A stretch of 64,000 bases of DNA from a bacterium (GTDB lineage Bacteria > UBA8248), in NCBI GenBank assembly GCA_965204535.1, contig CBDBEV010000001.1, positions 544,001 to 608,000 on the forward strand. The letters run 5' to 3'. Shown piece after piece: positions 2,510 to 61,225 of the stretch. Below the pieces are notes generated by a model. The model did no database searches and had not been told where the DNA came from. It was given only the letters and a program-made list of their open reading frames with translations. How positions within the stretch are numbered: the first letter of the stretch is position 1; every line of letters begins with the position of its first letter. A program made the position numbers and the translations under genes.

Positions 2510-2610
2510 TTCGTCTTTTTGGAGGGCTGTTGAAAAAGCCCCCCTCCTCAGAGGATAAAGGCAACCCCCCCTACCCCCCCTTTTGATATACGGTATCGCA
2601 TTCATTGCCT

Positions 2611-2749
2611 GTGATTTCGATGCAACTTATTGATATTATACTTGTTATCTATTTTATTCAACATCGAGCAAAATCTGTTAGTCGTTGCTTGTAATCAAAC
2701 CGAAAGCGGATTGATTCCAACACCCGCGCATCCATTCGAGCGAACGTCC
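2611..2749 (+). repeat. Conserved non-coding element, copy 1 (IS66 target)
   Basis: 2691-2730 GTAATCAAACCGAAAGCGGATTGATTCCAACACCCGCGCA is 34/40 identical to 48721-48760; IHF-consensus CAACTTATTGATA at 2623-2635. Confidence 0.8.
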
Positions 2750-2818
2750 GTAAGCGTTCGGGCGGGCCGTGATGGTAGTGCCTTGAAGCAGTAGTTCGGG
2801 CCGGGATGGGGGATGATT

Positions 2819-3691
2819 TTACCGGTTGAGGACTTGCTTCCAGTTTCTGCGCAAGGGTCGTAGCCAGATGTCCTTTTTCGGTTGGGCTCGTTTCGTGTAC
2901 CTGTCGTAGCGTCCACGCCCCTGGGTCATACCGACGTGGACCCACCCCGAAGCCCTGTAGACGGCGCCGGTGTAGCGCGGCGTCTCGACGAAGGTCTCGA
3001 CGAGGACGGGGGTCGTGCCATAGCGCTCGGTCCAGTCTTCGGGCAGGCGCCTGCGGATGATGGCGAGGAGATGGGAACCGAGGTTGGGGATCCTGATCCA
3101 GGGCAGGATGAGGAACCTCGGGTTGTCGACCACGAGGGGGAGGTTCTTCTCGCGCAACTGCGGCGTCCAGCCGATGAAGGCGTCGCGCGGGGCGAGCTTC
3201 CACGCGGCGGTGGAGAAGCCGAGCATGGCGAGGGGCCTGCCGTCGCGGTCGTGGACGGCGTAGCGCATCTGGGCGCCGACGAGGGTCTTGTAACCGAGGT
3301 AGTGGTAGCGGGCGACGAACTCGTTCCAGAGCCTGCCCTCGCGGGTTCCGCGCACGGCGACGCGCATATCGAGGGGGCGGACCTCATCGAGGGTCTCAGG
3401 CGCCGGGATGAGGGGAGGTTCGGTGTCGGGTCCGAAGACGACCGGGCCGGGCCGGTTCTGCCGCCACTTCGGAGGCGGCAGCGTGATCAGGCCGTCCTTG
3501 TGCATGGCGAGCATGGTCACCCGGGCCATCATGTCCTTGAGCCCGCCGTCGGGCTTGTACCAGCCGATGCGGCGGCAGAACTCCTTCGACAGCGCGTGGC
3601 GGTTGAGCGCAGGAGGACCTGCGATCAGCGCGCGCAGCAGCGCCATCTCTTCTGTCGTGAAGTCGCGTCCGTAGTAGCGGCACCCGGTCAC
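2819..3691 (-). CDS. DUF4338 (DruA-like) domain protein with N-terminal HTH-like region, inside IS66
   Basis: YHYLGYK..G..MRY, LGFS.AAWKLAPRD.FIGW, NPRFLILPW..IPNLGSH, LVETFVE, G..YRASGW motifs; GTG start at 3691 gives 290 aa, matching copies 2 and 3. Confidence 0.85.
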   Translation of the reverse strand: MTGCRYYGRDFTTEEMALLRALIAGPPALNRHALSKEFCRRIGWYKPDGGLKDMMARVTMLAMHKDGLITLPPPKWRQNRPGPVVFGPDTEPPLIPAPETLDEVRPLDMRVAVRGTREGRLWNEFVARYHYLGYKTLVGAQMRYAVHDRDGRPLAMLGFSTAAWKLAPRDAFIGWTPQLREKNLPLVVDNPRFLILPWIRIPNLGSHLLAIIRRRLPEDWTERYGTTPVLVETFVETPRYTGAVYRASGWVHVGMTQGRGRYDRYTKRAQPKKDIWLRPLRRNWKQVLNR

Positions 3692-3695
3692 GGCG

Positions 3696-6050
3696 TCATC
3701 CCGGCGCCGTGAGGGCGCGCCTGCGCTCCTCATTCATCGACCAGGGCAACCACGCGGAGAGGTCCCCGGGCGGGCGGCCGCCGCCCTCCGCGCAGGCGGT
3801 GAGCCATGCCTCCAGCCAGCGGAGAGTGTCGATGCCGTTTAACGAGAGCGTGCCGAGGACCGTATACATCATCGCCGTGAACCCGGCGCCGGCCTCGCTG
3901 TCGGAGCCGAACGAGAGCCGCCTGCCGATCACGGGGCCCCTGAGCACTCTCTCCGCAAAATTATTATCCATCGGTACCGAGGGGCGTTCGACGAAGACGC
4001 TCAGCCCCTCGCGGTGGTTCAGCAGCGAGCGAAGCGCCTTGCCCTCGCGCGCCTGTGCCGGCAGGGCCGTCAGTTCCCGTGTAGCTTGCGCGAACAGGCT
4101 CTCGAGGGCCTTCTTGAGCGCGTCATGCGCCGCTTCGAACGCCGCGTCCTGTCGTTGGGCCCCCGGGTCGTAACGGGCCAGGCGCGCCTCGTTCAGGCGG
4201 TAGAGCAAGGCAATCCGCTCGATCCATCTCTCGCACCACGGCGTCAGCCGCTCCTCGCCGGCGGCGCAGTGGATATAATCGCGCCGGACGTGAGACCAGC
4301 ACCATGCGAGAGTCACCAGACCCCCGGGAATGCGCGCCAGCTTCTTGTAGGCATTGTAGCGGTCGCAGACGAGGACCGTATGGGAGCCGGACGCGCCGAA
4401 GAGCTTCATCGCGACCTCAGCACTCCGCGAGGGGTCGACGTGGAAGTAGACGGAGTCTGCGCTTACCGAGGTCCATAGCCAGGCGCGGCTCGAGCGGCCC
4501 TCCTCGCGAAGCGACTGAACGCGCCACGTCGTCTCGTCCCCGTGACGCACCGCCGCTTCGTTCTGGCGGTCGAGGATCGCCGCAGCCGGCGGCTCGAAGA
4601 GCGGCGTGAAGCGGTGCGTGCTGTCGCCCAGTGTGCCTGCCGAGACCGGAAGCCCCTGGTCGGAGAGCCATTCGGCGACCCGGCGCAGCGGGCGGAAGCA
4701 GGCGTAGCGCTCGAACAGGAAGCGCGCCCACACGCTCGTCCCGTAAGGCGTGCCCGCGAACAGGCGCGGCGCAGGCGGCGCCGACACTTCCACCGGAGAC
4801 GACGCGCACTCGCATCTCCTGCGCCATCTCGGACGGCGGATGACGCGCTTGTAGGCCGAGACTTCAATCTCGAAGATGGAGGAGACCTCGGCGCCATTGA
4901 CCACGTAGGGCTTCCCGCAACCGGCGCAGACGCGCGCACCGGCCGGCGGGTTGCGAACTTCGGTCCTCTCATCGAGCGCGGGACGCGAGGTGCGGCCATG
5001 GCCCCGGGCGCCGGGCTGACGACCGCGCCTGCGCTCAGAGCGCGGCCTCTCCTGCCGTTCGCTCTTGCGCCCGAACAGTCTTCTCGCCAGCACCGCTCCG
5101 GTGGCGCGAAGCTTCGCGAGCTCGGCCTCCAGCCGCGCCCGGCGAGCCTCCGACTTGCGGAGCGCCCTGCGAAGACGCCCGTTCTCCCTCGACAGCGACC
5201 TGAGCGCCGTCTTCTGGCGCCGCGACCTCCCCAGGGCCTTGCGCAGTTCCTCATCTGCACGAGACGGCGACTTCGAGCGCGCCGCCTCGAGAGCGCGCAG
5301 CAACCGCGCCTTCAGCCGTTCGGTCGCAATACCTGCGGCCCCCAGGGAGACTTCAAGACGGTAGACCTCCGCAGACAGCGACTCGACCACCTCCGCCTGG
5401 TCGCGCAATCGCCTCAACTTCCTGTAGAGCCCGATGGCCTCCTCGTCCAGGCTCCGAATGGTCTCCTTGTCGGTCGCCGACTTCTGCTTCTCCAGGGCCA
5501 GACGATCTTCGAGCCGGGCAACTTCCTTCTCCCGCCGGCCGACCTCCTTGCGCAGGGCATGAATCGTCTCCTTGCGCTCCTCCAGGGCCTTGCGCAGCCG
5601 CCCCGCCTCCCCCGGCGACGGCACGCCCGAGAGCTCCTTGCGAAGCCGGACGACCTCCATGCGCAGCGACATGAGCGGGCTGCGCTTGCGCGGATCGACC
5701 CCCGCCTCCGCAAGCAGCTTCTCCAGCCGCGCCACTTCCGCCTTGAGCGACAGCGCGTCCTTCGCCGCGCGGCGGGCTTCCTTCGCCTCCCCGGCGGCCG
5801 CCTCGAGCTTCTTCCGGCTGGCGTCGAGATGCCGCTTCAGCTTGCCCGCACGGGAGCGGGAATCCACTTCCGCCCAACGCAACTCCTCGCAGCGCGCCTC
5901 CGCCGCCTCCGCGCGCGCACGCTCGCGCTCGTACAGCGAACGCCAGTACGCCTCTGCGGTTGTGGACAACCCGGGGGAATGAGGCCATGGCTCATCCGGC
6001 CTCTCGGCCAACGCCAACTCCGTCTCGACAGCTTCTGCGCGAATCTTCAT
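3696..6050 (-). CDS. tnpC: IS66 transposase (TnpC) with ~320-aa N-terminal coiled-coil extension
   Basis: LFGRKSER, G.QPG..GH, CxxC zinc finger, HGDETTW, CDRY, CWSHVRR, PMDNN.AER.LR motifs. Confidence 0.92.
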   Translation of the reverse strand: MKIRAEAVETELALAERPDEPWPHSPGLSTTAEAYWRSLYERERARAEAAEARCEELRWAEVDSRSRAGKLKRHLDASRKKLEAAAGEAKEARRAAKDALSLKAEVARLEKLLAEAGVDPRKRSPLMSLRMEVVRLRKELSGVPSPGEAGRLRKALEERKETIHALRKEVGRREKEVARLEDRLALEKQKSATDKETIRSLDEEAIGLYRKLRRLRDQAEVVESLSAEVYRLEVSLGAAGIATERLKARLLRALEAARSKSPSRADEELRKALGRSRRQKTALRSLSRENGRLRRALRKSEARRARLEAELAKLRATGAVLARRLFGRKSERQERPRSERRRGRQPGARGHGRTSRPALDERTEVRNPPAGARVCAGCGKPYVVNGAEVSSIFEIEVSAYKRVIRRPRWRRRCECASSPVEVSAPPAPRLFAGTPYGTSVWARFLFERYACFRPLRRVAEWLSDQGLPVSAGTLGDSTHRFTPLFEPPAAAILDRQNEAAVRHGDETTWRVQSLREEGRSSRAWLWTSVSADSVYFHVDPSRSAEVAMKLFGASGSHTVLVCDRYNAYKKLARIPGGLVTLAWCWSHVRRDYIHCAAGEERLTPWCERWIERIALLYRLNEARLARYDPGAQRQDAAFEAAHDALKKALESLFAQATRELTALPAQAREGKALRSLLNHREGLSVFVERPSVPMDNNFAERVLRGPVIGRRLSFGSDSEAGAGFTAMMYTVLGTLSLNGIDTLRWLEAWLTACAEGGGRPPGDLSAWLPWSMNEERRRALTAPG

Positions 6051-6472
6051 GCCGACATCATTAGCACATGTCGAATCGCGTTACCAGTCGCCCGGGAAAA
6101 TTCTATCCGATGGAGGCGATGCGCCCGGCGCCGGGTCCATCACGGCCCGCCCGAACGCTTACGAACGTCCTGGAAGCGACGGCCGGGTAGGCGGGGGCAT
6201 TGCTGCGCACCGCCTACCCGGCCTAACGACGTAACGATTCGGTGGCAGGGTGACGGCCGCGCTGAAACCGGCGGCTGCATGAAGTATTGTCCGAAAGGAG
6301 TCAGACCTGTGCCCTCACCACTTCGGCAGTGGCAGGTGATTCAGGCGGTTCCGGTGAATCAGCAGCATTCTCGCTGACCGTGGGGGACATCGGCCCGCGT
6401 CGTTGACACTCACTCAGGAGAGCTGCGGTCCGCGCCGGCACCGGAGATCGCTTCAGGCAACACCGTGAACCC

Positions 6473-20279: not shown

Positions 20280-20387
20280 TTAGTGAGTCCTCCTCCTAGC
20301 AATAACCAAGGGACAAAACGACGGGCGGCCCCCGCGAGCCCTTCTTCTCCGCCCCGCCCCCCTCCAGGGGGCGGGGCCGTCTTGCCG

Positions 20388-23617: not shown

Positions 23618-24652
23618 ATGGAATCGGGACGGCAACTCCACGAACGTGAATCGCCGCCGGAACTTCAGGGCGCCGGCCGAACGACAGATCACGGAGAACC
23701 ATGGGCGAAACCCGCGGCGCCGGGGAGACGCTCCCCCCTGGAAAAACCCGACGAGAGTCACTCACCGCACCCCGGTTCGTTCCGGGCGTCGGCTGATCTG
23801 GTGCGCGCCTCGATCGCCGGGAACACGCGCCGCGCCTACGAGGCGGCGCTGCGCGGCTTCGAGGAATCGGGGCGCCCCGAGACCGACGCCGGGGTGGCGG
23901 CCTACCTCACGGGGCTCTACGGGAAGGGCCGCTCGGCGGCCTGCGCCTCGATGGCGGTCGCGGCGCTGCGGTTCCGGGCGAGGCTGGGCGGCCGCTCCTC
24001 CCCGGTGGGTCCTTCGGCGCTGCGCGCCCTGGCGGGCTTCAGGCGTCTGGGCTCGGAGCGGGGCCGGGGCCCGGTGGCCGGGGTGCGCTGGGAGGAGGCG
24101 GACCTCGCGGCGGCGCTGGCCGAGGGGACGGGGACCCTGGGCGGGCTGCGCGACGCCGCGGTCGTGGCGGTGGCGAGCGACGCCCTGCTGCGGGTGTCGG
24201 AGGTCGCGGCGCTCGACGTCGCGGACGTGGACCTCGGGGAGCAGACGGTGCGGATACGGCGCTCCAAGACGGACCAGGAGGGTGTGGGCGTCGTGCAGTA
24301 CCTCGGAGAACCGACCGTGGCGCGCGTAGAGGCCTGGCTTCTGGGCGCAGGCCTGACGAAGGGGCCGCTCTTCCGGGGCGTGTACAAGGGGGGACGGCTT
24401 CGGCCCGGGCGCCTGACGGACAGGAGCATCCGGAGCATCATCGCGCGGTGGGGGAAGGCCGCGGGCGCCGAGGGGCGCGTGAGCGGCCACAGCCTCCGGG
24501 TGGGGGGCGCGCAGAGCCTGGCCTCGGCGGGGGCGTCGCTGGTCGAGATGCAGCTCGCCGGGCGCTGGCAGTCGCCGGCCATGCCGGGACGCTACGCGCA
24601 GGGACAACTCGCGAAACAGGGCGCCGTGGCGAGGCTGCGATACGGCCTGTGA
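23618..24652 (+). CDS. Cre-like tyrosine recombinase/integrase
   Basis: RDAA...LLRVSE (R), RRSKTDQ (K), SGHSLRVG (HxxR), GRW, RY catalytic Tyr; N-terminal NTRRAY region. Confidence 0.9.
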   Translation: MESGRQLHERESPPELQGAGRTTDHGEPWAKPAAPGRRSPLEKPDESHSPHPGSFRASADLVRASIAGNTRRAYEAALRGFEESGRPETDAGVAAYLTGLYGKGRSAACASMAVAALRFRARLGGRSSPVGPSALRALAGFRRLGSERGRGPVAGVRWEEADLAAALAEGTGTLGGLRDAAVVAVASDALLRVSEVAALDVADVDLGEQTVRIRRSKTDQEGVGVVQYLGEPTVARVEAWLLGAGLTKGPLFRGVYKGGRLRPGRLTDRSIRSIIARWGKAAGAEGRVSGHSLRVGGAQSLASAGASLVEMQLAGRWQSPAMPGRYAQGQLAKQGAVARLRYGL

Positions 24653-24695
24653 GGTCCGCCGCGTGCGGGACGCCCGTCTACTCCCGGATATCTCT

Positions 24696-25397
24696 CTACC
24701 GCCTCTTCTTTCTCCGGGCGGCTCTCTCCCCGGACGTGGAAGTCCACCTGCGGGCGGAGGCCCACTTCTCGAGATCTTCGAGCAGGTAGCGCACCCGGTA
24801 TCCGGTGCGAAGAAAATCCGGCCCCTCTCCACTCACGCGGTAGCGCTCCAGCGTCTTGGGCGAGAGGTTGAGCCAGGCGGCCGCCTCCCGCGTGTTCAGG
24901 TGGTTCTCCCCCGCGCGCTCATCGACGTCTTCTGCGGCGTCCCACGTCCCGTCGAACGGGTCGGGCAAGTGCGCGAGCCTCTCGCGTATGGCGCGGACCT
25001 CCTCTCGCGTCGCGTTGGCCGCCATCCAGGCGCGCACCCGGTCGAAGGTCTTGAGATACGGCGAGGCGCCCCGGCGCAGCCTCCCCACGAAGGAGGGGTT
25101 CCCCACGGCCTCCTCGCCCAGGATCGAGACCTTGGTCCCGCTCACCGCGAGGAACGCCTCGACCTCGGCCCGCAGGAGCGGTCCCAGGGGCGGATACCCC
25201 ATGAACGCCAGCACCCGGTCCGCCGTGTCGACCCGCAGGGGCCGCCCCCGGGCGTACAGTCCCACGAAGCCGGGAACCCCCAGCGCGCCCACCCCGAAGC
25301 GCCGCGCGCTCATCCCCCGGCGCGCGCGCCAGAGCGCAATGCTCCGGCGCAGCCGCTCGTCCAGCGGGGCGCCGGTATCGTCGTCGAAGGCGGTCAT
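24696..25397 (-). CDS. DNA-binding protein with C-terminal excisionase-like HTH
   Basis: Two internal repeated HTH-like units plus LNTREAAAWLNLSPKTLERYRVSGEGP.F....RVRY. Confidence 0.75.
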   Translation of the reverse strand: MTAFDDDTGAPLDERLRRSIALWRARRGMSARRFGVGALGVPGFVGLYARGRPLRVDTADRVLAFMGYPPLGPLLRAEVEAFLAVSGTKVSILGEEAVGNPSFVGRLRRGASPYLKTFDRVRAWMAANATREEVRAIRERLAHLPDPFDGTWDAAEDVDERAGENHLNTREAAAWLNLSPKTLERYRVSGEGPDFLRTGYRVRYLLEDLEKWASARRWTSTSGERAARRKKRR

Positions 25398-45506: not shown

Positions 45507-48314
45507 ATGGTGGCATCCATCGGCGCCGTCGCCGCCTCCGCGCAGGGGGCGTCCTACTACGAGCGCGACGGCTACTACGCGAAGGACGACCCGGCGCACC
45601 GCGAAGCGAGCGCCTGGCAAGGCAGGGGCGCGGAGGATTTGGGACTCTCGGGTCCGGTCGACCCCGATACCTTCCGCGCGGTGCTCGAAGGCATGGTGCC
45701 CGACGGTTCGGGGCGCAGGCTCGGACGCTTGGGCAAGGACGGGTCGTTCCACCACCGTCCCGGCCGCGACCTCACCCTCTCGGCGCCCAAGTCCGTCTCC
45801 CTCCTGGCTCTCGTCGGCGGCGACGCGCGCGCGATTAGGGCCCACGATGCGGCCGTCGCGCGCACCCTGGACTGGGTCGAGCGAAACGTCGCAGAGACCA
45901 GGATGAGCGACCCCAAGACCGGGCGCATGGTCCGGGCGGGGGAACAGAAGAGCGTCGTCGCGACCTTCCGGCACGACACGTCGCGCAACCTCGACCCCCT
46001 GCTCCACACGCACTCAGTTCTAGCCAACATGGTCCGGGGGACAGACGGCAAATGGCGCACGATGTCGAACGAGAAGCTCTATGCGAATAAGATGCTGATA
46101 GGTGCCATGTACCGCACGGAACTCGCAAGTGAACTTGAAAGAATCGGCTACCGTATCGAGAAGACCCACGCCGACGGGCGCTTCGAGGTCGCGGGCGTGC
46201 CCAGGGACGTGATCGAGGCGTTCTCGACCCGGCGGGCGGAGATAGAGGCCGCGATGGCCGAGCGCGGTCTGGGCGCTACGGCGGAGAACCAGCGCGCAGC
46301 CCAGCGGGCCGCGCTCATGACCCGCGCGCGCAAGCGCGACGTCGACAAGACCGTCCTCGCGGCCGTATGGGAGAAACAGGCGAAGGAGCTGGGCTTCGAC
46401 GCCGGTACCCTCGCGGCGGAAGCGATGGCGAGGAGCGTGGCGACCAGGGAACCGGAACCCGCACGCGAGGCCGTGGAATGGGCCGTGGCGCACCTCTCGG
46501 AGCGGGAAGCGGTTTTCGACCGCGCCGCTCTGCTCGCGGGCGCGCTCGCCTGGCGGCCGGGCGCGGTGTCGATGACGGGCGCCGAACGCGAGGTGGCGAG
46601 GCTGGAGGAGACCGGCGTCCTGCACGCGGCGGACCTGCCGGGAACCAGGGACATGATCACTACGGAGAAGGCAGCGGCGGCTGAGCGTGAGACCATCGCC
46701 CTCCTGAATTCCGGACGCGGGCGGGGGGCGCCCGCCATGCGCGCCCGCGCCGTGGACAAGGCCTTGAGAAACGGCCCGCTGACACATGGCCAGCGCGAGG
46801 CCGTGAAACTCATCCTCACCGACTCCGACCGCGTCGTCGGCGTACAGGGCTACGCGGGCACGGGCAAGACCGCGATGCTCAAGCGCGCCCGCGCTCTATT
46901 CGAGAAGCGCGGCTACGAGGTCATGGGCCTGGCGCCCTCGGCTTCGGCAGCGCGGACCCTCGAAACCGAGGCCGGGATCGCGAGCGAGACGCTCCAGCGC
47001 TTCCTCGCGCGAAACGCCGGGGTCGCCGATGGCCGCCTCACGAGAACGACCGAGAAAAAGATGCGCGCGGGCTACGCGAAGACCGCCCTCGTCGTGGACG
47101 AGGGCTCCCTGGCTTCCACGCGCGAGGTGCGTGAACTCCTGCGGATCGCGGGGACCTTGCGCCTGCCCCGGGTCGTTCTGGTGGGCGACGCGAAACAGCT
47201 CGACGCCGTGGACGCCGGCAAACCCTTCGCGCAGCTGCAGGCCGCGGGCATGAAGACGGCGGTGATGCAGGAGATCATGCGCCAGCGCGACCAGGACCTG
47301 AAAGCCGCCGTCGAGTCCACGCTCACAGGCGACGTGAAGCGCGCCTTCGAGAAGCTGGGTTCCAACGTAGCCGAAGTGAAACCTGACAACCTCGCGGGCG
47401 CCGCCGCCGCGCGCTGGCTTGCGCTCCCGCCCGAGGCGCGTGCAAACGCCGGGCTCATGGCGCCGAGCCATGCGATCCGCGAGAAGATCAACGCCATCGT
47501 GCGCGAGCGCCTGATCCGGGACGGCGTCGTCCACGGTCCGGCTTTCCTCACGGAACGCCTTGTCTCGCGCGGCTACACGAACCCCGAGAAATCGCTCGCC
47601 GCGAACTATTCTCCCGGCGACGTGGTGGCCTTCCACCGGCCCTACAAGCGAATCGGCGTCGAGAAGGGGGATGAGTTGCGCGTGGCGGGTGTCGATCACG
47701 CGAACAGCGCCGTCATCCTCGAAGGTGGGCACGGGCGGGAAATCCGCTGGGAGCCCCGCCGTCTCGCGGCGCGCACCGGCGGTGTCGAGGTATACCGCGT
47801 CGAGCATATGGAACTGCGCCAGGGCGACAAGGTCCGCTGGACCCGGAACGACAAGGACCTCGGTCTCATGAACAGCCAGGCCGCCGAGGTGACGGGCGTC
47901 AGGGGCGGGTGCGTCACCTTCCGGGTCGAGGACGGGCGCGTCCTCGACATGACGAGCGCCGATCCCCAGCTTCGACACGTCGACCGCGCATGGGCCTCGA
48001 CCGTCCACGCCTTCCAGGGCCGGACGGTCGATACCGTCATCGCGGCGATGGAGGCGAACCACCCCGAGCTCACCAACCAGAAGACGCTCTACGTCGAGAT
48101 CAGCCGCGCCCGGGACCGGGCGGAACTCGTGACGGACGACGCGAAGGCCCTGTGCGAACGGCTCGAAACCGCCACCGGGGAGCGCATCGCGGCTCTGGAA
48201 GCGCTCGGTGACAGGATCAGGGATACAGGGAGAACGAAGGAAGCGGCGCAATCGATGGAGCAACGGACGCCGGGGAGGGAGAAGGTTCGCTCAGCGCATG
48301 AGTTGGGAATGTAG
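45507..48314 (+). CDS. traI: MobF (TrwC/TraI) relaxase-helicase
   Basis: YY...GYY, DLTLSAPKSVS, H..SR..DP.LHTH, FSTRR, QGYAGTGKT, VDE, H..QG.T. Confidence 0.95.
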   Translation: MVASIGAVAASAQGASYYERDGYYAKDDPAHREASAWQGRGAEDLGLSGPVDPDTFRAVLEGMVPDGSGRRLGRLGKDGSFHHRPGRDLTLSAPKSVSLLALVGGDARAIRAHDAAVARTLDWVERNVAETRMSDPKTGRMVRAGEQKSVVATFRHDTSRNLDPLLHTHSVLANMVRGTDGKWRTMSNEKLYANKMLIGAMYRTELASELERIGYRIEKTHADGRFEVAGVPRDVIEAFSTRRAEIEAAMAERGLGATAENQRAAQRAALMTRARKRDVDKTVLAAVWEKQAKELGFDAGTLAAEAMARSVATREPEPAREAVEWAVAHLSEREAVFDRAALLAGALAWRPGAVSMTGAEREVARLEETGVLHAADLPGTRDMITTEKAAAAERETIALLNSGRGRGAPAMRARAVDKALRNGPLTHGQREAVKLILTDSDRVVGVQGYAGTGKTAMLKRARALFEKRGYEVMGLAPSASAARTLETEAGIASETLQRFLARNAGVADGRLTRTTEKKMRAGYAKTALVVDEGSLASTREVRELLRIAGTLRLPRVVLVGDAKQLDAVDAGKPFAQLQAAGMKTAVMQEIMRQRDQDLKAAVESTLTGDVKRAFEKLGSNVAEVKPDNLAGAAAARWLALPPEARANAGLMAPSHAIREKINAIVRERLIRDGVVHGPAFLTERLVSRGYTNPEKSLAANYSPGDVVAFHRPYKRIGVEKGDELRVAGVDHANSAVILEGGHGREIRWEPRRLAARTGGVEVYRVEHMELRQGDKVRWTRNDKDLGLMNSQAAEVTGVRGGCVTFRVEDGRVLDMTSADPQLRHVDRAWASTVHAFQGRTVDTVIAAMEANHPELTNQKTLYVEISRARDRAELVTDDAKALCERLETATGERIAALEALGDRIRDTGRTKEAAQSMEQRTPGREKVRSAHELGM

Positions 48315-48623
48315 GATATACGCTATCGAATTTTATCGTATAAAATCGCTAAATGGTATTTTGCCCGTTTAGAGACAGTGGGGGATTTTCAGCGGTGATG
48401 ATATCCTGTATTCTATGTTATAAAAGCTGTGTCGAACATGTTGCGTAAAGGAGGTGGACATGCTTGAAATATTTTCCGTCCAGCCCTCTCCCACATGATT
48501 CCCCAAGCTCATTTGGGGCGCCGGGAGAGGGTTACCTCCCCCTCCCCTTAACTACCTAGCCATGTAAGCAGTTCCCAAAAATTCGATAAATTCACGACGT
48601 CTTTCGCGTGGTTTCAGACAGCG

Positions 48624-48779
48624 GGGGATTGCCGACGGTCGTGAATTCCTTTTAGTTTGTTGAAAGTATTGTGGGTATTGGTTTTTTCGAACTTCGTTCA
48701 GTATTTGCCTTCTGGAAGAAGTAATCAAATCGGAAGCGGATGGATTACAACTCCTGCGCATATCAGCGAGTTCGTGTCG
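48624..48779 (+). repeat. Conserved non-coding element, copy 2 (IS66 target)
   Basis: Core 48721-48760; 48624-48683 is 46/60 identical, ungapped, to 61071-61130. Confidence 0.85.
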
Positions 48780-48848
48780 GTAAGCGTTCGGGCGGGCCGT
48801 GATGGTAGTGCCTTGAAGCAGTAGTTCGGGCCGGAATGGGGGATGATT

Positions 48849-49721
48849 TTACCGGTTGAGGACTTGCTTCCAGTTTCTGCGCAACGGTCGTAGCCAGATG
48901 TCCTTTTTCGGTTGGTCTCGTTTCGTGTATCTGTCGTAGCGTCCACGCCCCTGGGTCATACCGACGTGAATCCACCCCGATGCCCTGTAGACGGCGCCGG
49001 TGTAGCGCGGCGTCTCGACGAAGGTCTCGACGAGGACGGGTGTCGTGCCATAGCGCTCGGTCCAGTCCTCGGGCAGGCGCCTGCGGATGATGGCGAGGAG
49101 GTGTGAGCCGAGGTTGAGGATCCTGATCCATGGCAGGATGAGGAACCTCGGGTTGTCGACCACGAGGGGGAGGTTCTTCTCGCGCAGCTGCGGCGTCCAG
49201 CCGATGAAGCTGTCGCGCGGGGCGAGCTTCCACGCGGCGGTGGAGAAGCCGAGCATGGCGAGGGGCCTGCCGCCCCGGTCGTGGACGGCGTAGCGCATCT
49301 GCGCGCCGACGAGGGTCTTGTAGCCGAGGTAGTGGTAGCGGGCGACGAACTCGTTCCAGAGCCTGCCCTCGCGGGTTCCGCGCACGGCGACGCGCATATC
49401 GAGGGGGCGGACTTCGTCGAGGGTCTCAGGCGCCGGGATGAGGGGAGGTTCGGTGTCGGGTCCGAAGACGATCGGCCCGGGCCGGTTCTGGCGCCACTTC
49501 GGTGGGGGCAGCGTGATCAGGCCGTCCTTGTGCATGGCCAGCATAGTCACCCGGGCCATCATGTCCTTGAGTCCGCCGTCGGGCTTGTACCAGCCGATTC
49601 GGCGGCAGAACTCCTTCGATAGCGCATGGCGGTTGAGCGCAGGTGGACCTGCGATCAGTTCGCGCAGCAGCGCCATCTCTTCCGTCGTGAAGTCGCGTCC
49701 GTGGTAGCGGCACTCGGTCAC
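48849..49721 (-). CDS. DUF4338 domain protein (IS copy 2)
   Basis: Close paralog of 2819-3691. Confidence 0.85.
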   Translation of the reverse strand: MTECRYHGRDFTTEEMALLRELIAGPPALNRHALSKEFCRRIGWYKPDGGLKDMMARVTMLAMHKDGLITLPPPKWRQNRPGPIVFGPDTEPPLIPAPETLDEVRPLDMRVAVRGTREGRLWNEFVARYHYLGYKTLVGAQMRYAVHDRGGRPLAMLGFSTAAWKLAPRDSFIGWTPQLREKNLPLVVDNPRFLILPWIRILNLGSHLLAIIRRRLPEDWTERYGTTPVLVETFVETPRYTGAVYRASGWIHVGMTQGRGRYDRYTKRDQPKKDIWLRPLRRNWKQVLNR

Positions 49722-49725
49722 GGCG

Positions 49726-52080
49726 TCATCCCGGCGCCGTGAGGGCGCGCCTGCGCTCCGTGCTCATCGACCAGGGCAGCCACGCGGAGAGGTCCCCGGG
49801 CGCCCGGCCGCCGTTCTCCGCGCAGGCCGTGAGCCATGCCTCCAGCCAGCGGAGCGGGTCGACCCCGTTCGACGCGAGGGTTCCGAGGACCGAGTACATC
49901 ATCGCCGTAAACCTGGCGCCGGCCTCGCTGTCGGAGCCGAACGAGAGCCGCCTGCCGATCACAGGGCCCCGAAGCGCACGTTCGCTGGCGTTGTTATCCA
50001 TCGGCACCGAGGGGCGTTCGATGAAGACGCTCAGCCCCTCGCGGTGGTTCAGCAGCGAGCGAAGCGCCTTGCCCTCGCGCGCCTGCGCGGGCAGAGCGGC
50101 CATCTCCCGTCGGGCCTGCGCGAACAGGTCCTTGAGCGCCTTCTTCAATTCGTCGTGCGCCGCGTCGAACGCCGCATCCTGGCGTTCGACGCCCGGGTCG
50201 TAACTGGCCAGGCGCGCCTCGTTCAGGCGGTAAAGCAAGGCAATCCGCTCGATCCATCTCTCGCACCACGGCGTCAGCCGCTCATCGCCGGCGGCGCAGT
50301 GGATATAATCGCGCCGGACGTGACTCCAGCACCATGCGAGAGTCACCAGACCCCCGGGAATGCGCGCCAGCTTCTTGTAGGCGCTGTAGCGGTCGCAGAC
50401 GATGACCGTATGGGAGCCGGCCGCGCCGAACAGCTTCATCGCGACCTCAGCACTCCGCGAGGGGTCGACGTGGAAGTAGACGGAGTCTGCGCTGACCGAG
50501 GTCCACAGCCAGGCGCGGCTCGAGCGTCCTTGTTCGCGAAGCGACTGAACGCGCCACGTCGTCTCGTCCCCGTGACGCACCGCCGCTTCGTTCTGGCGGT
50601 CGAGGATCGCCGCAGCCAGCGGCTCGAAGAGCGGCGTGAAGCGGTGCGTGCTGTCGCCCAGTGTGCCTGCAGAGACCGGAAGCCCCTGGTCGGAGAGCCA
50701 CGCGGCGACCCGGCGCAGCGGGCGGAAGCAGGCGTAGCGCTCGAACAGGAAGCGCGCCCACACGCTCGTCCCGTAAGGCGTGCCCGCGAACAGGCGCGGC
50801 GCGGCGGGCGCCGACACTTCCACCGGAGACGACGCGCACGCGCATCTCCTGCGCCATCTCGGACGGCGGATGACGCGCTTGTGGGCCGAGACTTCGATCT
50901 CGAAGATGGAGGAGACCTCGGCGCCATTGGCCACGTAGGGCTTCCCGCAACCGGCGCAGACGCGCGCACCGGCCGGCGGGTTGCGAACTTCGGTCCTCTC
51001 ATCGAGCGCGGGCCGCGGGGTGCGGCCATGACCGGCGGCGCCGGGTTGCCGGCCGCGCCTGCGCTCCGAGCGCGGCCTCTCCTGCCGTTCGCTCTTGCGC
51101 CCGAACAGTCTTCTCGCCAGCACCGCTCCGGTGGCGCGAAGCTTCGCGAGATCGGCCTCCAGCCGCGCCCGGATGGTCTCTGACTTGCGGAGCGCCCTGC
51201 GAAGACGCCCGTTCTCCCTCGACAGCGACCTGAGCGCCGTCTTCTGGCGCCGCGACCTCCCCAGGGCCTTGCGCAGTTCCTCATCTGCACGAGACGGCGA
51301 CTTCGAGCGCGCCGCCTCGAGAGCGCGCAGCAACCGCGCCTTCAGCCGTTCGGTCGCAATGCCTACGGCCCCCAGGGAGACTTCAAGACGGTAGACCTCC
51401 GCAGACAGCGACTCGACCACCTCCGCCTGGTCGCGCAATCGCCTCAACTTCCTGTAGAGCCCGATGGCCTCCTCGTCCAGGCTCCGAATGGTCTCCTTGT
51501 CGGTCGCCGACTTCTGCTTCTCCAGGGCCAGACGATCTTCGAGCCGGGCAACTTCCTTCTCCCGCCGGCCGACCTCCTTGCGCAGGGCATGAATCGTCTC
51601 CTTGCGCTCCTCCAGGGCCTTGCGCAGCCGCCCCGCCTCCCCCGGCGACGGCACGCCCGAGAGCTCCTTGCGAAGCCGGACGACCTCCATGCGCAGCGAC
51701 ATGAGCGGGCTGCGCTTGCGCGGATCGACCCCCGCCTCCGCAAGCAGCTTCTCCAGCCGCGCCACTTCCGCCTTGAGCGACAGCGCGTCCTTCGCCGCGC
51801 GGCGGGCTTCCTTCGCCTCCCCGGCGGCCGCCTCGAGCTTCTTCCGGCTGGCGTCGAGATGCCGCTTCAGCTTGCCCGCACGGGAGCGGGAATCCACTTC
51901 CGCCCAACGCAACTCCTCGCAGCGCGCCTCCGCCGCCTCCGCGCGCGCACGCTCGCGCTCGTACAGCGAACGCCAGTACGCCTCTGCGGTTGTGGACAAC
52001 CCGGGGGAATGAGGCCATGGCTCATCCGGCCTCTCGGCCAACGCCAACTCCGTCTCGACAGCTTCTGCGCGAATCTTCAT
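49726..52080 (-). CDS. tnpC: IS66 transposase (copy 2)
   Basis: Close paralog of 3696-6050. Confidence 0.92.
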   Translation of the reverse strand: MKIRAEAVETELALAERPDEPWPHSPGLSTTAEAYWRSLYERERARAEAAEARCEELRWAEVDSRSRAGKLKRHLDASRKKLEAAAGEAKEARRAAKDALSLKAEVARLEKLLAEAGVDPRKRSPLMSLRMEVVRLRKELSGVPSPGEAGRLRKALEERKETIHALRKEVGRREKEVARLEDRLALEKQKSATDKETIRSLDEEAIGLYRKLRRLRDQAEVVESLSAEVYRLEVSLGAVGIATERLKARLLRALEAARSKSPSRADEELRKALGRSRRQKTALRSLSRENGRLRRALRKSETIRARLEADLAKLRATGAVLARRLFGRKSERQERPRSERRRGRQPGAAGHGRTPRPALDERTEVRNPPAGARVCAGCGKPYVANGAEVSSIFEIEVSAHKRVIRRPRWRRRCACASSPVEVSAPAAPRLFAGTPYGTSVWARFLFERYACFRPLRRVAAWLSDQGLPVSAGTLGDSTHRFTPLFEPLAAAILDRQNEAAVRHGDETTWRVQSLREQGRSSRAWLWTSVSADSVYFHVDPSRSAEVAMKLFGAAGSHTVIVCDRYSAYKKLARIPGGLVTLAWCWSHVRRDYIHCAAGDERLTPWCERWIERIALLYRLNEARLASYDPGVERQDAAFDAAHDELKKALKDLFAQARREMAALPAQAREGKALRSLLNHREGLSVFIERPSVPMDNNASERALRGPVIGRRLSFGSDSEAGARFTAMMYSVLGTLASNGVDPLRWLEAWLTACAENGGRAPGDLSAWLPWSMSTERRRALTAPG

Positions 52081-52270
52081 GCCGACATCATTAGCACATG
52101 TCGAATCGCGTTACCAGTCGCCCGGGAAAATTCTATCCGATGGAGGCGATGCGCCCGGCGCCGGGTCCATCACGGCCCGCCCGAACGCTTACTCGTGTCG
52201 AGTAAGCGTTCGGGCGGGCCGTGATGGTAGTGCCTTGAAGCAGTAGTTCGGGCCGGAATGGGGGATGATT

Positions 52271-53143
52271 TTACCGGTTGAGGACTTGCTTCCAGTTTCT
52301 GCGCAACGGTCGTAGCCAGATGTCCTTTTTCGGTTGGTCTCGTTTCGTGTATCTGTCGTAGCGTCCACGCCCCTGGGTCATACCGACGTGAATCCACCCC
52401 GATGCCCTGTAGACGGCGCCGGTGTAGCGCGGCGTCTCGACGAAGGTCTCGACGAGGACGGGTGTCGTGCCATAGCGCTCGGTCCAGTCCTCGGGCAGGC
52501 GCCTGCGGATGATGGCGAGGAGGTGTGAGCCGAGGTTGAGGATCCTGATCCATGGCAGGATGAGGAACCTCGGGTTGTCGACCACGAGGGGGAGGTTCTT
52601 CTCGCGCAGCTGCGGCGTCCAGCCGATGAAGCTGTCGCGCGGGGCGAGCTTCCACGCGGCGGTGGAGAAGCCGAGCATGGCGAGGGGCCTGCCGCCCCGG
52701 TCGTGGACGGCGTAGCGCATCTGCGCGCCGACGAGGGTCTTGTAGCCGAGGTAGTGGTAGCGGGCGACGAACTCGTTCCAGAGCCTGCCCTCGCGGGTTC
52801 CGCGCACGGCGACGCGCATATCGAGGGGGCGGACTTCGTCGAGGGTCTCAGGCGCCGGGATGAGGGGAGGTTCGGTGTCGGGTCCGAAGACGATCGGCCC
52901 GGGCCGGTTCTGGCGCCACTTCGGTGGGGGCAGCGTGATCAGGCCGTCCTTGTGCATGGCCAGCATAGTCACCCGGGCCATCATGTCCTTGAGTCCGCCG
53001 TCGGGCTTGTACCAGCCGATTCGGCGGCAGAACTCCTTCGATAGCGCATGGCGGTTGAGCGCAGGTGGACCTGCGATCAGTTCGCGCAGCAGCGCCATCT
53101 CTTCCGTCGTGAAGTCGCGTCCGTGGTAGCGGCACTCGGTCAC
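52271..53143 (-). CDS. DUF4338 domain protein (IS copy 3)
   Basis: Identical to the copy 2 protein. Confidence 0.85.
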   Translation of the reverse strand: MTECRYHGRDFTTEEMALLRELIAGPPALNRHALSKEFCRRIGWYKPDGGLKDMMARVTMLAMHKDGLITLPPPKWRQNRPGPIVFGPDTEPPLIPAPETLDEVRPLDMRVAVRGTREGRLWNEFVARYHYLGYKTLVGAQMRYAVHDRGGRPLAMLGFSTAAWKLAPRDSFIGWTPQLREKNLPLVVDNPRFLILPWIRILNLGSHLLAIIRRRLPEDWTERYGTTPVLVETFVETPRYTGAVYRASGWIHVGMTQGRGRYDRYTKRDQPKKDIWLRPLRRNWKQVLNR

Positions 53144-53147
53144 GGCG

Positions 53148-55502
53148 TCATCCCGGCGCCGTGAGGGCGCGCCTGCGCTCCGTGCTCATCGACCAGGGCA
53201 GCCACGCGGAGAGGTCCCCGGGCGCCCGGCCGCCGTTCTCCGCGCAGGCCGTGAGCCATGCCTCCAGCCAGCGGAGCGGGTCGACCCCGTTCGACGCGAG
53301 GGTTCCGAGGACCGAGTACATCATCGCCGTAAACCTGGCGCCGGCCTCGCTGTCGGAGCCGAACGAGAGCCGCCTGCCGATCACAGGGCCCCGAAGCGCA
53401 CGTTCGCTGGCGTTGTTATCCATCGGCACCGAGGGGCGTTCGATGAAGACGCTCAGCCCCTCGCGGTGGTTCAGCAGCGAGCGAAGCGCCTTGCCCTCGC
53501 GCGCCTGCGCGGGCAGAGCGGCCATCTCCCGTCGGGCCTGCGCGAACAGGTCCTTGAGCGCCTTCTTCAATTCGTCGTGCGCCGCGTCGAACGCCGCATC
53601 CTGGCGTTCGACGCCCGGGTCGTAACTGGCCAGGCGCGCCTCGTTCAGGCGGTAAAGCAAGGCAATCCGCTCGATCCATCTCTCGCACCACGGCGTCAGC
53701 CGCTCATCGCCGGCGGCGCAGTGGATATAATCGCGCCGGACGTGACTCCAGCACCATGCGAGAGTCACCAGACCCCCGGGAATGCGCGCCAGCTTCTTGT
53801 AGGCGCTGTAGCGGTCGCAGACGATGACCGTATGGGAGCCGGCCGCGCCGAACAGCTTCATCGCGACCTCAGCACTCCGCGAGGGGTCGACGTGGAAGTA
53901 GACGGAGTCTGCGCTGACCGAGGTCCACAGCCAGGCGCGGCTCGAGCGTCCTTGTTCGCGAAGCGACTGAACGCGCCACGTCGTCTCGTCCCCGTGACGC
54001 ACCGCCGCTTCGTTCTGGCGGTCGAGGATCGCCGCAGCCAGCGGCTCGAAGAGCGGCGTGAAGCGGTGCGTGCTGTCGCCCAGTGTGCCTGCAGAGACCG
54101 GAAGCCCCTGGTCGGAGAGCCACGCGGCGACCCGGCGCAGCGGGCGGAAGCAGGCGTAGCGCTCGAACAGGAAGCGCGCCCACACGCTCGTCCCGTAAGG
54201 CGTGCCCGCGAACAGGCGCGGCGCGGCGGGCGCCGACACTTCCACCGGAGACGACGCGCACGCGCATCTCCTGCGCCATCTCGGACGGCGGATGACGCGC
54301 TTGTGGGCCGAGACTTCGATCTCGAAGATGGAGGAGACCTCGGCGCCATTGGCCACGTAGGGCTTCCCGCAACCGGCGCAGACGCGCGCACCGGCCGGCG
54401 GGTTGCGAACTTCGGTCCTCTCATCGAGCGCGGGCCGCGGGGTGCGGCCATGACCGGCGGCGCCGGGTTGCCGGCCGCGCCTGCGCTCCGAGCGCGGCCT
54501 CTCCTGCCGTTCGCTCTTGCGCCCGAACAGTCTTCTCGCCAGCACCGCTCCGGTGGCGCGAAGCTTCGCGAGATCGGCCTCCAGCCGCGCCCGGATGGTC
54601 TCTGACTTGCGGAGCGCCCTGCGAAGACGCCCGTTCTCCCTCGACAGCGACCTGAGCGCCGTCTTCTGGCGCCGCGACCTCCCCAGGGCCTTGCGCAGTT
54701 CCTCATCTGCACGAGACGGCGACTTCGAGCGCGCCGCCTCGAGAGCGCGCAGCAACCGCGCCTTCAGCCGTTCGGTCGCAATGCCTACGGCCCCCAGGGA
54801 GACTTCAAGACGGTAGACCTCCGCAGACAGCGACTCGACCACCTCCGCCTGGTCGCGCAATCGCCTCAACTTCCTGTAGAGCCCGATGGCCTCCTCGTCC
54901 AGGCTCCGAATGGTCTCCTTGTCGGTCGCCGACTTCTGCTTCTCCAGGGCCAGACGATCTTCGAGCCGGGCAACTTCCTTCTCCCGCCGGCCGACCTCCT
55001 TGCGCAGGGCATGAATCGTCTCCTTGCGCTCCTCCAGGGCCTTGCGCAGCCGCCCCGCCTCCCCCGGCGACGGCACGCCCGAGAGCTCCTTGCGAAGCCG
55101 GACGACCTCCATGCGCAGCGACATGAGCGGGCTGCGCTTGCGCGGATCGACCCCCGCCTCCGCAAGCAGCTTCTCCAGCCGCGCCACTTCCGCCTTGAGC
55201 GACAGCGCGTCCTTCGCCGCGCGGCGGGCTTCCTTCGCCTCCCCGGCGGCCGCCTCGAGCTTCTTCCGGCTGGCGTCGAGATGCCGCTTCAGCTTGCCCG
55301 CACGGGAGCGGGAATCCACTTCCGCCCAACGCAACTCCTCGCAGCGCGCCTCCGCCGCCTCCGCGCGCGCACGCTCGCGCTCGTACAGCGAACGCCAGTA
55401 CGCCTCTGCGGTTGTGGACAACCCGGGGGAATGAGGCCATGGCTCATCCGGCCTCTCGGCCAACGCCAACTCCGTCTCGACAGCTTCTGCGCGAATCTTC
55501 AT
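53148..55502 (-). CDS. tnpC: IS66 transposase (copy 3)
   Basis: Identical to the copy 2 protein. Confidence 0.92.
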   Translation of the reverse strand: MKIRAEAVETELALAERPDEPWPHSPGLSTTAEAYWRSLYERERARAEAAEARCEELRWAEVDSRSRAGKLKRHLDASRKKLEAAAGEAKEARRAAKDALSLKAEVARLEKLLAEAGVDPRKRSPLMSLRMEVVRLRKELSGVPSPGEAGRLRKALEERKETIHALRKEVGRREKEVARLEDRLALEKQKSATDKETIRSLDEEAIGLYRKLRRLRDQAEVVESLSAEVYRLEVSLGAVGIATERLKARLLRALEAARSKSPSRADEELRKALGRSRRQKTALRSLSRENGRLRRALRKSETIRARLEADLAKLRATGAVLARRLFGRKSERQERPRSERRRGRQPGAAGHGRTPRPALDERTEVRNPPAGARVCAGCGKPYVANGAEVSSIFEIEVSAHKRVIRRPRWRRRCACASSPVEVSAPAAPRLFAGTPYGTSVWARFLFERYACFRPLRRVAAWLSDQGLPVSAGTLGDSTHRFTPLFEPLAAAILDRQNEAAVRHGDETTWRVQSLREQGRSSRAWLWTSVSADSVYFHVDPSRSAEVAMKLFGAAGSHTVIVCDRYSAYKKLARIPGGLVTLAWCWSHVRRDYIHCAAGDERLTPWCERWIERIALLYRLNEARLASYDPGVERQDAAFDAAHDELKKALKDLFAQARREMAALPAQAREGKALRSLLNHREGLSVFIERPSVPMDNNASERALRGPVIGRRLSFGSDSEAGARFTAMMYSVLGTLASNGVDPLRWLEAWLTACAENGGRAPGDLSAWLPWSMSTERRRALTAPG

Positions 55503-56305
55503 GCCGACATCATTAGCACATGTCGAATCGCGTTACCAGTCGCCCGGGAAAATTCTATCCGATGGAGGCGATGCGCCCGGCGCCGGGTCCATCACGGCCC
55601 GCCCGAACGCTTACCGTGTCGATCGTTGCGTAGTCCTCCTCCAAAATACGACCTCGCAATGTTCATTCAGAAACCACTAGTCCGCGCCCCATGCAGATGC
55701 ATGATTCGCGTTGTGGAGTAGTCAATCACAACGATGATGATCTTTTGAAGGGAGCGCTCCGCCCGCGGCGTAATCGAACAACTTCCGGCTTTTTTGTTCA
55801 TGCGCGTCTCTTCTTTCGTCCCGTTCGCTCATCCTGCATGCAGATGGGAGTCTGCACCGCTTGCACCCAGGACGGAATAAATCAATAACCGCCCGTTTGC
55901 AAGGGTTTTCGATATTCAGTTTCCAACGCTTTTTGCGTATTCGCGCCCGACCCTGCGAGCGGCTGCTCGGAAGTGCGGCGAAAAAGTTCTTTTGTCGCGC
56001 GCCTCACTTGGCCCGAACGTCGCAGGGCCCGGGCGGGCGTTCATCGCGCACGGCCCCCGAGCCCCGCCTTGCACGACGGGTTCCGGGAGCCTCGGTTGCT
56101 CGATCTTACCGAAACGCAGGGCAAGCTCAGGAGCCAAAGGCTCCGGCTTTCGCTGCGCTACGCATTCTAAGCTTGAGGCCGGGGATTTGGGAGCTTTCGA
56201 TCTAAGGATGTTCATGTGAGCCTTCGGCCGTGAAGCCGACTTCCATGACGTGTATCCTCAATCGACTTATCTAGAACTCCAAAAGCCGCTGTTCGCTATT
56301 CGCGC

Positions 56306-58742: not shown

Positions 58743-58954
58743 TCAACGGAATTTCACCTCGGTGCCATTCACCGCTTCCTTGGATTGTTTTCCTGCCTTG
58801 AAGCTTACGACCTTGCGAGCGCTGATGAGCGCTTCCTGACCCGTCTTCGGGTTGCGCCCCACGCGAGCGTTCTTCTTCCTCATCTGGAAGGAGCCGAAGC
58901 GCCTCAAGATGACGGACTCGCCACCCTTAAGTGATTCCTTGATGGTGTCGATGA
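58743..58954 (-). pseudogene. 5'-truncated HU/IHF-family gene
   Basis: IDTIKESLKGGESVILRRFGSFQMRKKNARVGRNPKTGQEALISARKVVSFKAGK; in-frame stop just upstream, no start codon. Confidence 0.85.
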
Positions 58955-59074
58955 TACAGGGGGTTCAGGCGACCCCGCCGCGTGCAGTTCAGACGCAATC
59001 AGGCATCCTGTCCTACATTCGGCGGTAACTCCCAAACATTTGGAACACCTGAAATTCGTTTTGAATTTATTCAA

Positions 59075-60906: not shown

Positions 60907-61070
60907 TGACGAGGCGTTCAAGCCGGGGTTTCTTGCAGAATGTTCAGTTCCCGGGATTTGGATGACCGATTGTCGTTTTCAGGCAATGGGCAGCGGATAA
61001 TGTATCAAGGGAGGTTTAGCAAACTCGTTGAGGATGGTTTGCTCAGTCTTACACTCGTTTATGGGCGCTA

Positions 61071-61225
61071 GGGGATTTCCAACGGCTGTGAAGTCTTTGT
61101 TGTTTGTTGGAACTATTGCAGATATTTGTTTTTTGAATTTCGAACCAGGTTCACTATTTGAAATTTGTTATCAAAACGCAAGCGGATGAATTGCAATTTT
61201 TGCGCACTCCTACGAATGTTTGTCG
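61071..61225 (+). repeat. Conserved non-coding element, copy 3 (unoccupied)
   Basis: Core 61167-61206 GTTATCAAAACGCAAGCGGATGAATTGCAATTTTTGCGCA is 32/40 identical to 48721-48760; upstream block 46/60. Confidence 0.82.

Follow-up and report, generated by a model that had tools for sequence, protein, structure and literature searches.

Arm E and its copies

The window, i.e., the whole 64,000-nt stretch of DNA analysed here, carries a TrwC/TraI relaxase gene, copies of a short repeat designated arm E, and IS66-family elements (Table 1). The genome that holds the window is designated G000; other G numbers denote relatives, and L numbers denote fetched loci. Positions in arm E are counted from the first G of a 59-bp conserved motif (+1). 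An initial annotation had described three co-oriented copies of the repeat plus a partial copy, and all four pieces are present at the places given. The core of copy 3 is at position 61167, and the partial copy extends over 48369-48425. The size had been given as ~150 bp; the repeat itself stands, but its upstream start, ~108 bp ahead of the palindrome core, had been overlooked, and the length of E is ~170 bp. The right ends of copies 1 and 2 were placed correctly, but an IS66-family insertion with 8-bp duplications lies exactly there and had been missed. The copies were also said to sit at module boundaries, which they do, with the qualification that these boundaries are all inside one 104-kb island that extends beyond the window end.

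The 28-bp imperfect palindrome of the initial annotation is present at 48721-48748. So is the IHF-like site, which is a perfect 13-mer at 2623 in copy 1, 68 bp ahead of the core at 2691, and a weaker match in copy 2, likewise 68 bp ahead of the core at 48721. No tRNA genes were found within the window. Elsewhere in the window, at 17574-23093, are two tandem, near-identical genes for 901-aa alanine-rich proteins with a period of 2,814 bp and no Pfam match.

Table 1. Positions of arm E copies and associated features in the window
Feature	Position	Strand	Remarks
12-bp direct repeat, inferred crossover core	2571..2582	+	second copy near G000:C2:650,549-650,560, beyond the window; part of the multi-copy MITE-like host repeat split by the island
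Arm E, copy 1	2583..2749	+	outermost arm, left end of island
IHF-consensus site, copy 1 (putative)	2623..2635	-	sequence match
59-bp conserved motif, copy 1	2691..2749	+	common to arm R; likely integrase arm-type sites
IS66-family element (TnpC + DUF4338)	2750..6162	-	at +60 of copy 1, 8-bp target duplication; 95.6% identical to the others
Palindromic remnant, group II intron 3′ end (domain VI)	6181..6223	.	intron complete at the same place in G002 (L112)
TrwC/TraI relaxase	45507..48314	+	
Truncated arm E	48360..48425	+	core and first ~55 bp
Left part of AT-rich dispersed host repeat M2	48577..48606	+	interrupted by copy 2
Arm E, copy 2 (focal)	48602..48779	+	internal-subfamily core 48602-48612, IHF-like site 48653-48665, 59-bp motif 48721-48779
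IS66-family element	48780..52192	-	at +60, 8-bp duplication; DUF4338 gene 48849-49721, TnpC gene 49726-52080
Second, identical IS66-family element	52202..55614	-	own 8-bp duplication, shifted by 1 bp
Arm E, copy 3	61059..61225	+	internal subfamily, degenerate, IS-free; motif 61167-61225

A nucleotide HMM built from the three copies, as the initial annotation had proposed, gave 32 matches in G000 at an E-value <=1e-3, and a second iteration gave 33 copies at an E-value <1e-10; the best E-value of the iterated HMM on the reversed genome was only 0.11. Three of the 33 fall in a stretch common to both contigs, which leaves 30 distinct copies. This stretch is >30 kb (C1:183,000-222,000; C2:2,956,000-end plus C2:1-35,000), displays R (see below), integrase genes and three E copies on both contigs, and represents either a duplicated island or an assembly overlap. 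A degenerate pattern search detected E in 22 of the 51 genomes from the phylum, and the reversed pattern had 0 matches in the same 51 genomes. The 80 listed loci with a named taxon in a species-wide collection belong to Nitrospinota, with the exception of one Acidobacteriota bin. A plasmid search with E returned just three chance 44-bp matches (E-value 0.5), and viral contigs had 0 exact matches to the E pattern. Loci L355 and L371 carry a divergent motif resembling E, next to which an IS66-type end lies at +59 and +62, and suggest further arm subfamilies beyond the patterns used.

Two other roles were considered for these sequences. A coding origin of the 59-bp motif was rejected, as its variable positions show no 3-base period, and a replication-fork barrier finds no support, as E is found on both strands and in regions of either GC-skew sign (judged by eye).

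Arm R, tandem integrases and island ends

Weak matches to the E HMM fell just 5′ of tandem integrase gene pairs and revealed a second arm, R. It consists of the same 59-bp motif, then an IHF-type site, and then the junction at about +180. With the IHF consensus applied to both arms, a motif with <=1 mismatch is found in 66/100 E copies (12.5 expected from shuffles), its modal position being -69/-68, and in 25/55 R arms (6.3 expected). An IHF/HU-like gene remnant, read from the DNA by eye, lies inside the island at 58770-58960 of the window (minus strand) and also in L383 and L392; relatives have DNA similar to it between the relaxase gene and intB.

In G000, 12 of the 13 R arms are directly before an integrase gene, and in ten relatives the integrase start is <=150 bp away in 52 of 58 R matches. 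Both integrases, IntA and IntB, display an Arm-DNA-bind_3 domain and the intact R-K-HxxR-H-Y catalytic set. Domains of the arm-binding type recognise accessory sites in the arms, close to the crossover, and Arm-DNA-bind_3 is described as a marker of the IntSXT group (PMC8138268). IntA is found in 19 of the 51 genomes, all with E, and 29 genomes devoid of E are also devoid of IntA, with three genomes having E and no IntA; the genomes compared are kin and these counts are not independent. E outnumbers R in G000 (33 vs 13). Of these E copies, 26 are oriented towards an R on the same strand no more than 120 kb away (15.0 on average when whole clusters are flipped, P=0.003) and seven are not directed at any nearby R.

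Copy 1 and the R arm at C2:650,560 share 12 bp, their longest common string, which delimits an island of 104 kb. Complete islands have the order direct repeat of 8-14 bp, E, cargo, intB, intA, R, and the same direct repeat. Seven E-R pairs in G000 share 8-12 bp at their junctions, one pair being duplicated between the contigs. In G002, where pairs were picked by position, five of ten pairs have 10-11 bp in common with the R junction and the other five have none; in four REP-type pairs of this genome a C/T variant matches at both ends. G032 has a minimal element of 5.2 kb with a 14-bp repeat, reduced almost to the two arms and the integrase pair, and in G030 all eight R arms and seven E copies flank one point of an IS256-type gene. 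A dozen islands coexist in one chromosome.

Relatives were compared for the site without the island. In 19/19 loci, DNA that lies to the right of the island begins no more than 1.5 kb after the gene on the left side of copy 1, in 16 of them with the first gene, and in G002 the left and right flanks are joined within 21 bp. It should be noted that the host MITE is also missing at the joined locus of the relatives, and the exact empty allele is deduced from intact MITE copies. This MITE-like multi-copy repeat is seen at window positions 2524-2582 and at G000:C2:650,560-650,860, split by the island. Contigs from sequencing runs, compared with both island ends, break at the repeats and for that reason show neither a circle nor an empty-site joint. 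The comparison of genomes shows that copy 1 forms the left end of the 104-kb island, which is absent from relatives.

Five of 122 E copies start right after the CCA of a tRNA-Ser gene, at -108 to -111, and one R end, in G008 (L160), has tRNA 3′ letters. The G002 counterpart of copy 1 (L112) is one of the five; copy 1 itself is in a MITE, thus one type of element is found in two kinds of target. As both the junction repeats and the tRNA-CCA ends are upstream of the palindrome, the crossover is probably located ~110 bp upstream of it, with the IHF-type site in between.

The initial annotation had proposed an att-type site linked to tyrosine recombinases and island edges, and this agrees with what is found: E is one end of integrative islands. 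Its further proposal of island accretion applies in part. In an array, the far end of the island has its partner in the outermost copy alone, and the visible pile-up at the element consists of IS66-type DNA.

Integration targets

The core sequences vary by subfamily and match multi-copy host DNA. The left junctions of 153 E copies comprise 44 at M2, 25 with the internal core, 7 REP-like, 5 at tRNA-Ser, 1 at a MITE and 71 unclassed; at the R side, 28/55 junctions are at M2. M2 is made of ~10-bp units with modular flanks, one of which bears an IHF-like site, and is a main integration target. It has 60 listed rows in G000, a few of them doubled or spurious, which corresponds to about 55-60 places. 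The REP-like palindrome has 109 matches and the MITE-like repeat 249 loose matches. Insertion beside one conserved gene, as in the described IntSXT clusters, is not the pattern of the 153 left junctions. Closely related tandem integrases occupy quite dissimilar targets, and in every case the target matches a short core, which suggests that this site-specific integrase can be retargeted. The islands account for many of the accessory regions of these genomes, including adhesin, defence and conjugation genes.

Internal copies

Copy 2, copy 3 and the partial copy belong to an internal subfamily whose pattern matches 25 of 153 E copies; 24 of the 25 share a near-constant core of 7-8 bp and have unrelated left flanks. 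No R with a matching direct repeat was found for these three; like most internal E copies, the focal one has no repeat in common with R. Empty alleles for the flanks of the subfamily were absent from the collected loci.

In many relatives the integrase pair lies no more than about 2 kb from a relaxase homologue that points towards it. In the present island, additional segments with E copies at their head separate the relaxase gene from the integrase genes; G016 has the relaxase gene (traI) followed by AbiE with no E in between, and G020 (L113) has a full E at the site of the partial copy of the window. These arrangements indicate that the internal arms head added segments. Most likely the internal copies are what remains of nested or tandem islands, namely their left ends, the R ends and integrase genes of these islands having been deleted later.

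A different origin, in which internal copies are attC-like cassette sites and E x E recombination at the short core moves single modules, should be considered but is quite unlikely. The near-constant core with unrelated left flanks would suit it, as would the co-orientation of the arrays and the direct junction of traI and AbiE in G016. However, the blocks shared 3′ of different internal copies consist of 2-10 kb of backbone-like DNA whose ends do not coincide with the next E, and E shows no hairpin signal. Nested or tandem islands thus remain the preferred reading of the internal copies.

An IS66-family element at a fixed position in the arm

The element inserted at copies 1 and 2 is 3,413 bp in length and has terminal inverted repeats. 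It contains only the genes for TnpC and DUF4338, without tnpA or tnpB. TnpC matches PF03050 and NF033517 (285.9 bits, cut-off 180), and the element presumably fits the single-transposase ISBst12-like group of IS66. An exact 8-bp target duplication is found at 10 of the 13 copies in G000. Ten of the 13 copies (seven of ten loci) are at E in either orientation, one end of the IS adjoining E at four loci and the other end at three, and three copies are off target. Three loci are doublets; in the doublet of the window, the separate, shifted duplication makes the second IS an independent hit on the same site. Single IS copies are found at the offsets of the doublets too, which shows that the doublets are explained by E.

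The position of insertion is confined to a few nucleotides. Among 14 near-full IS copies in seven relatives, 11 are at +60-62 or +70-73 of the motif (ten in E, one in R), and in the remaining three the terminal repeats adjoin intron or IS1111-type ends. In the sole R arm seen with the IS the insertion is at +60. IS66-type ends are present at 49 of 122 E copies collected irrespective of the IS, and at 65 of 153 copies in a set that includes loci fetched with the IS (41 at +59-62, 23 at +70-73 and one at +65); two control windows have four and one such ends. MITEs of 122-241 bp that consist of the IS ends only are found at the same offsets. The 48 different target 8-mers are varied and have 10,558 occurrences in G000, and one insertion is at +61 despite the replacement of motif positions 33-59. 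The varied 8-mers, together with this insertion beside an altered motif, indicate that position and not local sequence sets the landing site. E is thus also the landing mark of an IS66 subgroup with positional targeting.

On metagenome contigs of other hosts, one of 39 distinct IS ends abuts E. For ten of these 39 the fetched flank includes the gene of an arm-binding integrase, which is a raw proportion. In loci L252, L253, L260, L297 and L300 of other hosts the related IS is found either next to an R-like arm or at a distance of 26-160 bp from genes for arm-binding integrases.

DUF4338 is retained in every full IS copy. Its predicted fold (pLDDT 82; 35 when predicted without an alignment) has a helical N-terminal part followed by a GNAT domain, the top structural matches of which include phage Mu Mom; DUF4338 had no sequence match in the PDB. 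Prediction of a DUF4338-IntA complex gave a score of 0.00, which weighs neither way. In a literature search that covered chiefly papers outside subscription journals, no report was found of IS66 elements targeting att sites, of DUF4338 as an IS gene, or of tandem DUF4102 integrases entering REP-like repeats.

Other elements are found at the ends of the IS. A group II intron (Rfam D1D4-6), oriented antisense to E, is inserted at the tip of the IS66-type terminal repeat, in its outermost bases, in L112 (2016-4020), L094, L328 and L361, and 43-bp palindromic domain-VI remnants of the intron are found at several sites. The intron was considered as a second element that hunts E and rejected, as its insertion point is where the IS66-type terminal repeat ends. 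IS1111-like ends are located ~7 nt inside the terminal repeat (G000 C1:211,429 and C1:755,939; L004, L051, L365 and L369), and suggest an IS110-family element that targets this repeat.

Proposed mechanism and alternatives

We hold it highly probable that E is an island end, which likely serves the two tandem integrases and IHF as attachment arm, and that an IS66-family transposon inserts at a constant spacing from it. By analogy with lambda, the arm-binding domains of the integrases would hold the 59-bp motif, IHF would bend the DNA towards a crossover about 110 bp away, and the short core would pick the target by homology. A complex at the motif, most likely of integrase and IHF or else an IS-encoded domain that reads the motif, may then position the transposase, and the IS would gain a harmless seat on a transferable island.

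Alternatively, the palindrome itself may be the crossover core of a res/Xer-like site served by a simple Cre-like tyrosine recombinase; the initial annotation had parsed it as an 11-6-11 core of this kind. An imperfect symmetry does exist (mean 6.1/11 in E), and a Cre-like gene is within 4 kb of 14 of 122 E copies. However, homology among E copies continues on both sides of the palindrome, flanks switch ~108-116 bp upstream of it, the homologous motif in R is not palindromic (mean 3.1/11), and the Cre-like gene of the window has no adjoining E. We therefore regard this as very unlikely. Extremely unlikely, in our estimate, is a role of the motif apart from recombination, whether as a small RNA or as an operator or promoter element shared by the targets of a regulator. 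The motif in R is located 16-50 bp ahead of the intA start and could double as an operator, but E is at a fixed distance from island junctions whichever gene comes next, and it is absent from relatives without the integrases, three genomes excepted. The small RNA that the initial annotation had allowed for finds no Rfam match at gathering level and no structure signal: in 100 dereplicated E copies the consensus fold is unpaired and the top covarying columns are not complementary, and the folding stability of 45 folded copies shows no excess (mean z -0.55 to +0.35). The attachment arm is thus retained as the preferred reading of E.

The Cre-like gene of the window is part of a convergent pair (23618-25397) with a gene for a 233-239-aa protein that ends in HTH_17. 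The pair is found at eight more places in G000, is often located 0.3-1.5 kb inside outer E copies, and is possibly a resolution or directionality module.

What steers the IS to the arm is a separate question. The peaks at +59-62 and +70-73 are one helical turn apart, from which a bound protein may be inferred, and the presence at the same offsets of MITEs with the IS ends alone implies a targeting factor that acts in trans. Targeting by a complex bound at the motif has, in our view, about an even chance of being correct, and targeting through bent DNA or a survival bias is improbable. It may also be that an IS-encoded domain, either the helical N-terminal part of DUF4338 or the long N-terminus of TnpC, reads the DNA directly and the integrase is unneeded. 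This competes with the targeting step alone of the explanation given above, and we think it rather doubtful though worth serious consideration. It would account for the orphan internal arms that also receive the IS, for the MITEs, and for the presence of DUF4338, with a helical domain ahead of its GNAT fold, in all full copies. Against it, all 14 genomes with the IS also have IntA, and in hosts devoid of E the related IS is near arm-binding integrase genes in the 10/39 cases mentioned, three of them 144-160 bp before the gene, again as a raw proportion.

A more far-reaching reading is put forward tentatively, with somewhat less than even confidence. The IS66 subgroup may be a dedicated “att-arm hunter”, for which the integrase-IHF complex acts as guide and either DUF4338 or the N-terminus of TnpC selects the target; the islands would be two-integrase elements with a swappable core of 8-14 bp; and a four-tier chain would lead from host repeat to island, to IS66, and to intron or IS1111 element. 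If so, the IS66 subgroup travels on conjugative islands, seated one or two helical positions into the arm, and a core swap retargets the island to whichever host repeat is abundant. For the common IS66 family, target choice and mechanism have been poorly described, and here a motif of ~60 bp fixes the landing to within a few bases. Such a defined motif makes IS66 target selection directly testable on a plasmid.

Comparison with known systems

The arms E and R resemble attL and attR of the P4/SXT type, the IntSXT (DUF4102/Arm-DNA-bind_3) elements (PMC8138268): the tyrosine integrases are arm-binding, a short direct repeat stands at both ends, the crossover has an accessory motif and an IHF-type site close by, tRNA 3′ ends are among the insertion sites, and the cargo includes conjugation genes. 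Unlike the IntSXT elements described there, the islands have two tandem integrases, both catalytically intact by their residues. The IntSXT clusters in the same source insert beside conserved genes (tRNA, guaA, prfC), whereas most subfamilies here are found in multi-copy repeats or in an IS gene, each with its own core. The element is thus predicted to be an att arm of a known island class, in an unusual two-integrase, repeat-targeting form.

The IS shares with the IS66 family a DDE domain, the 8-bp target duplication and terminal inverted repeats. It differs from canonical IS66 in the absence of tnpA and tnpB, in its GNAT-fold partner gene DUF4338 and in its strong positional choice of target. 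Repeats of 8 bp are given for two IS66 members in PMC3281130.

The res-site hunters Tn5053/Tn402 are similar in that a DDE transposon is located beside the recombination site of another element and is carried along, and in that defective copies move in trans; as described (PMC7765201), they have TniABQ, 5-bp repeats, serine-resolvase res sites and a preferred orientation. In contrast, the system here has an IS66-family TnpC, 8-bp repeats, a tyrosine-integrase arm, both orientations and two helically phased distances. The ISAba32 subgroup of IS1202, found at XerCD sites, is also a simple IS at a fixed distance from a tyrosine-recombinase site, with repeated insertion at one site and some off-target copies. 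It belongs to another IS family, abuts its core site at 5 bp and has one orientation, according to the preprint (bioRxiv 10.1101/2022.12.17.520857), whereas the IS here lies just inside the accessory arm, about 170 bp from the crossover.

The IS1111 elements that occupy transposon terminal repeats (e.g., IS4321/IS5075; PMC11187229) are the counterpart of the ends found ~7 nt inside the IS66-type terminal repeat. Unlike these, the secondary passengers here were assigned by motif and by a downstream IS110-like peptide alone. With the arms described here, the hunting of recombination sites, i.e., res sites, Xer sites and attC, would extend to the arms of integrases.
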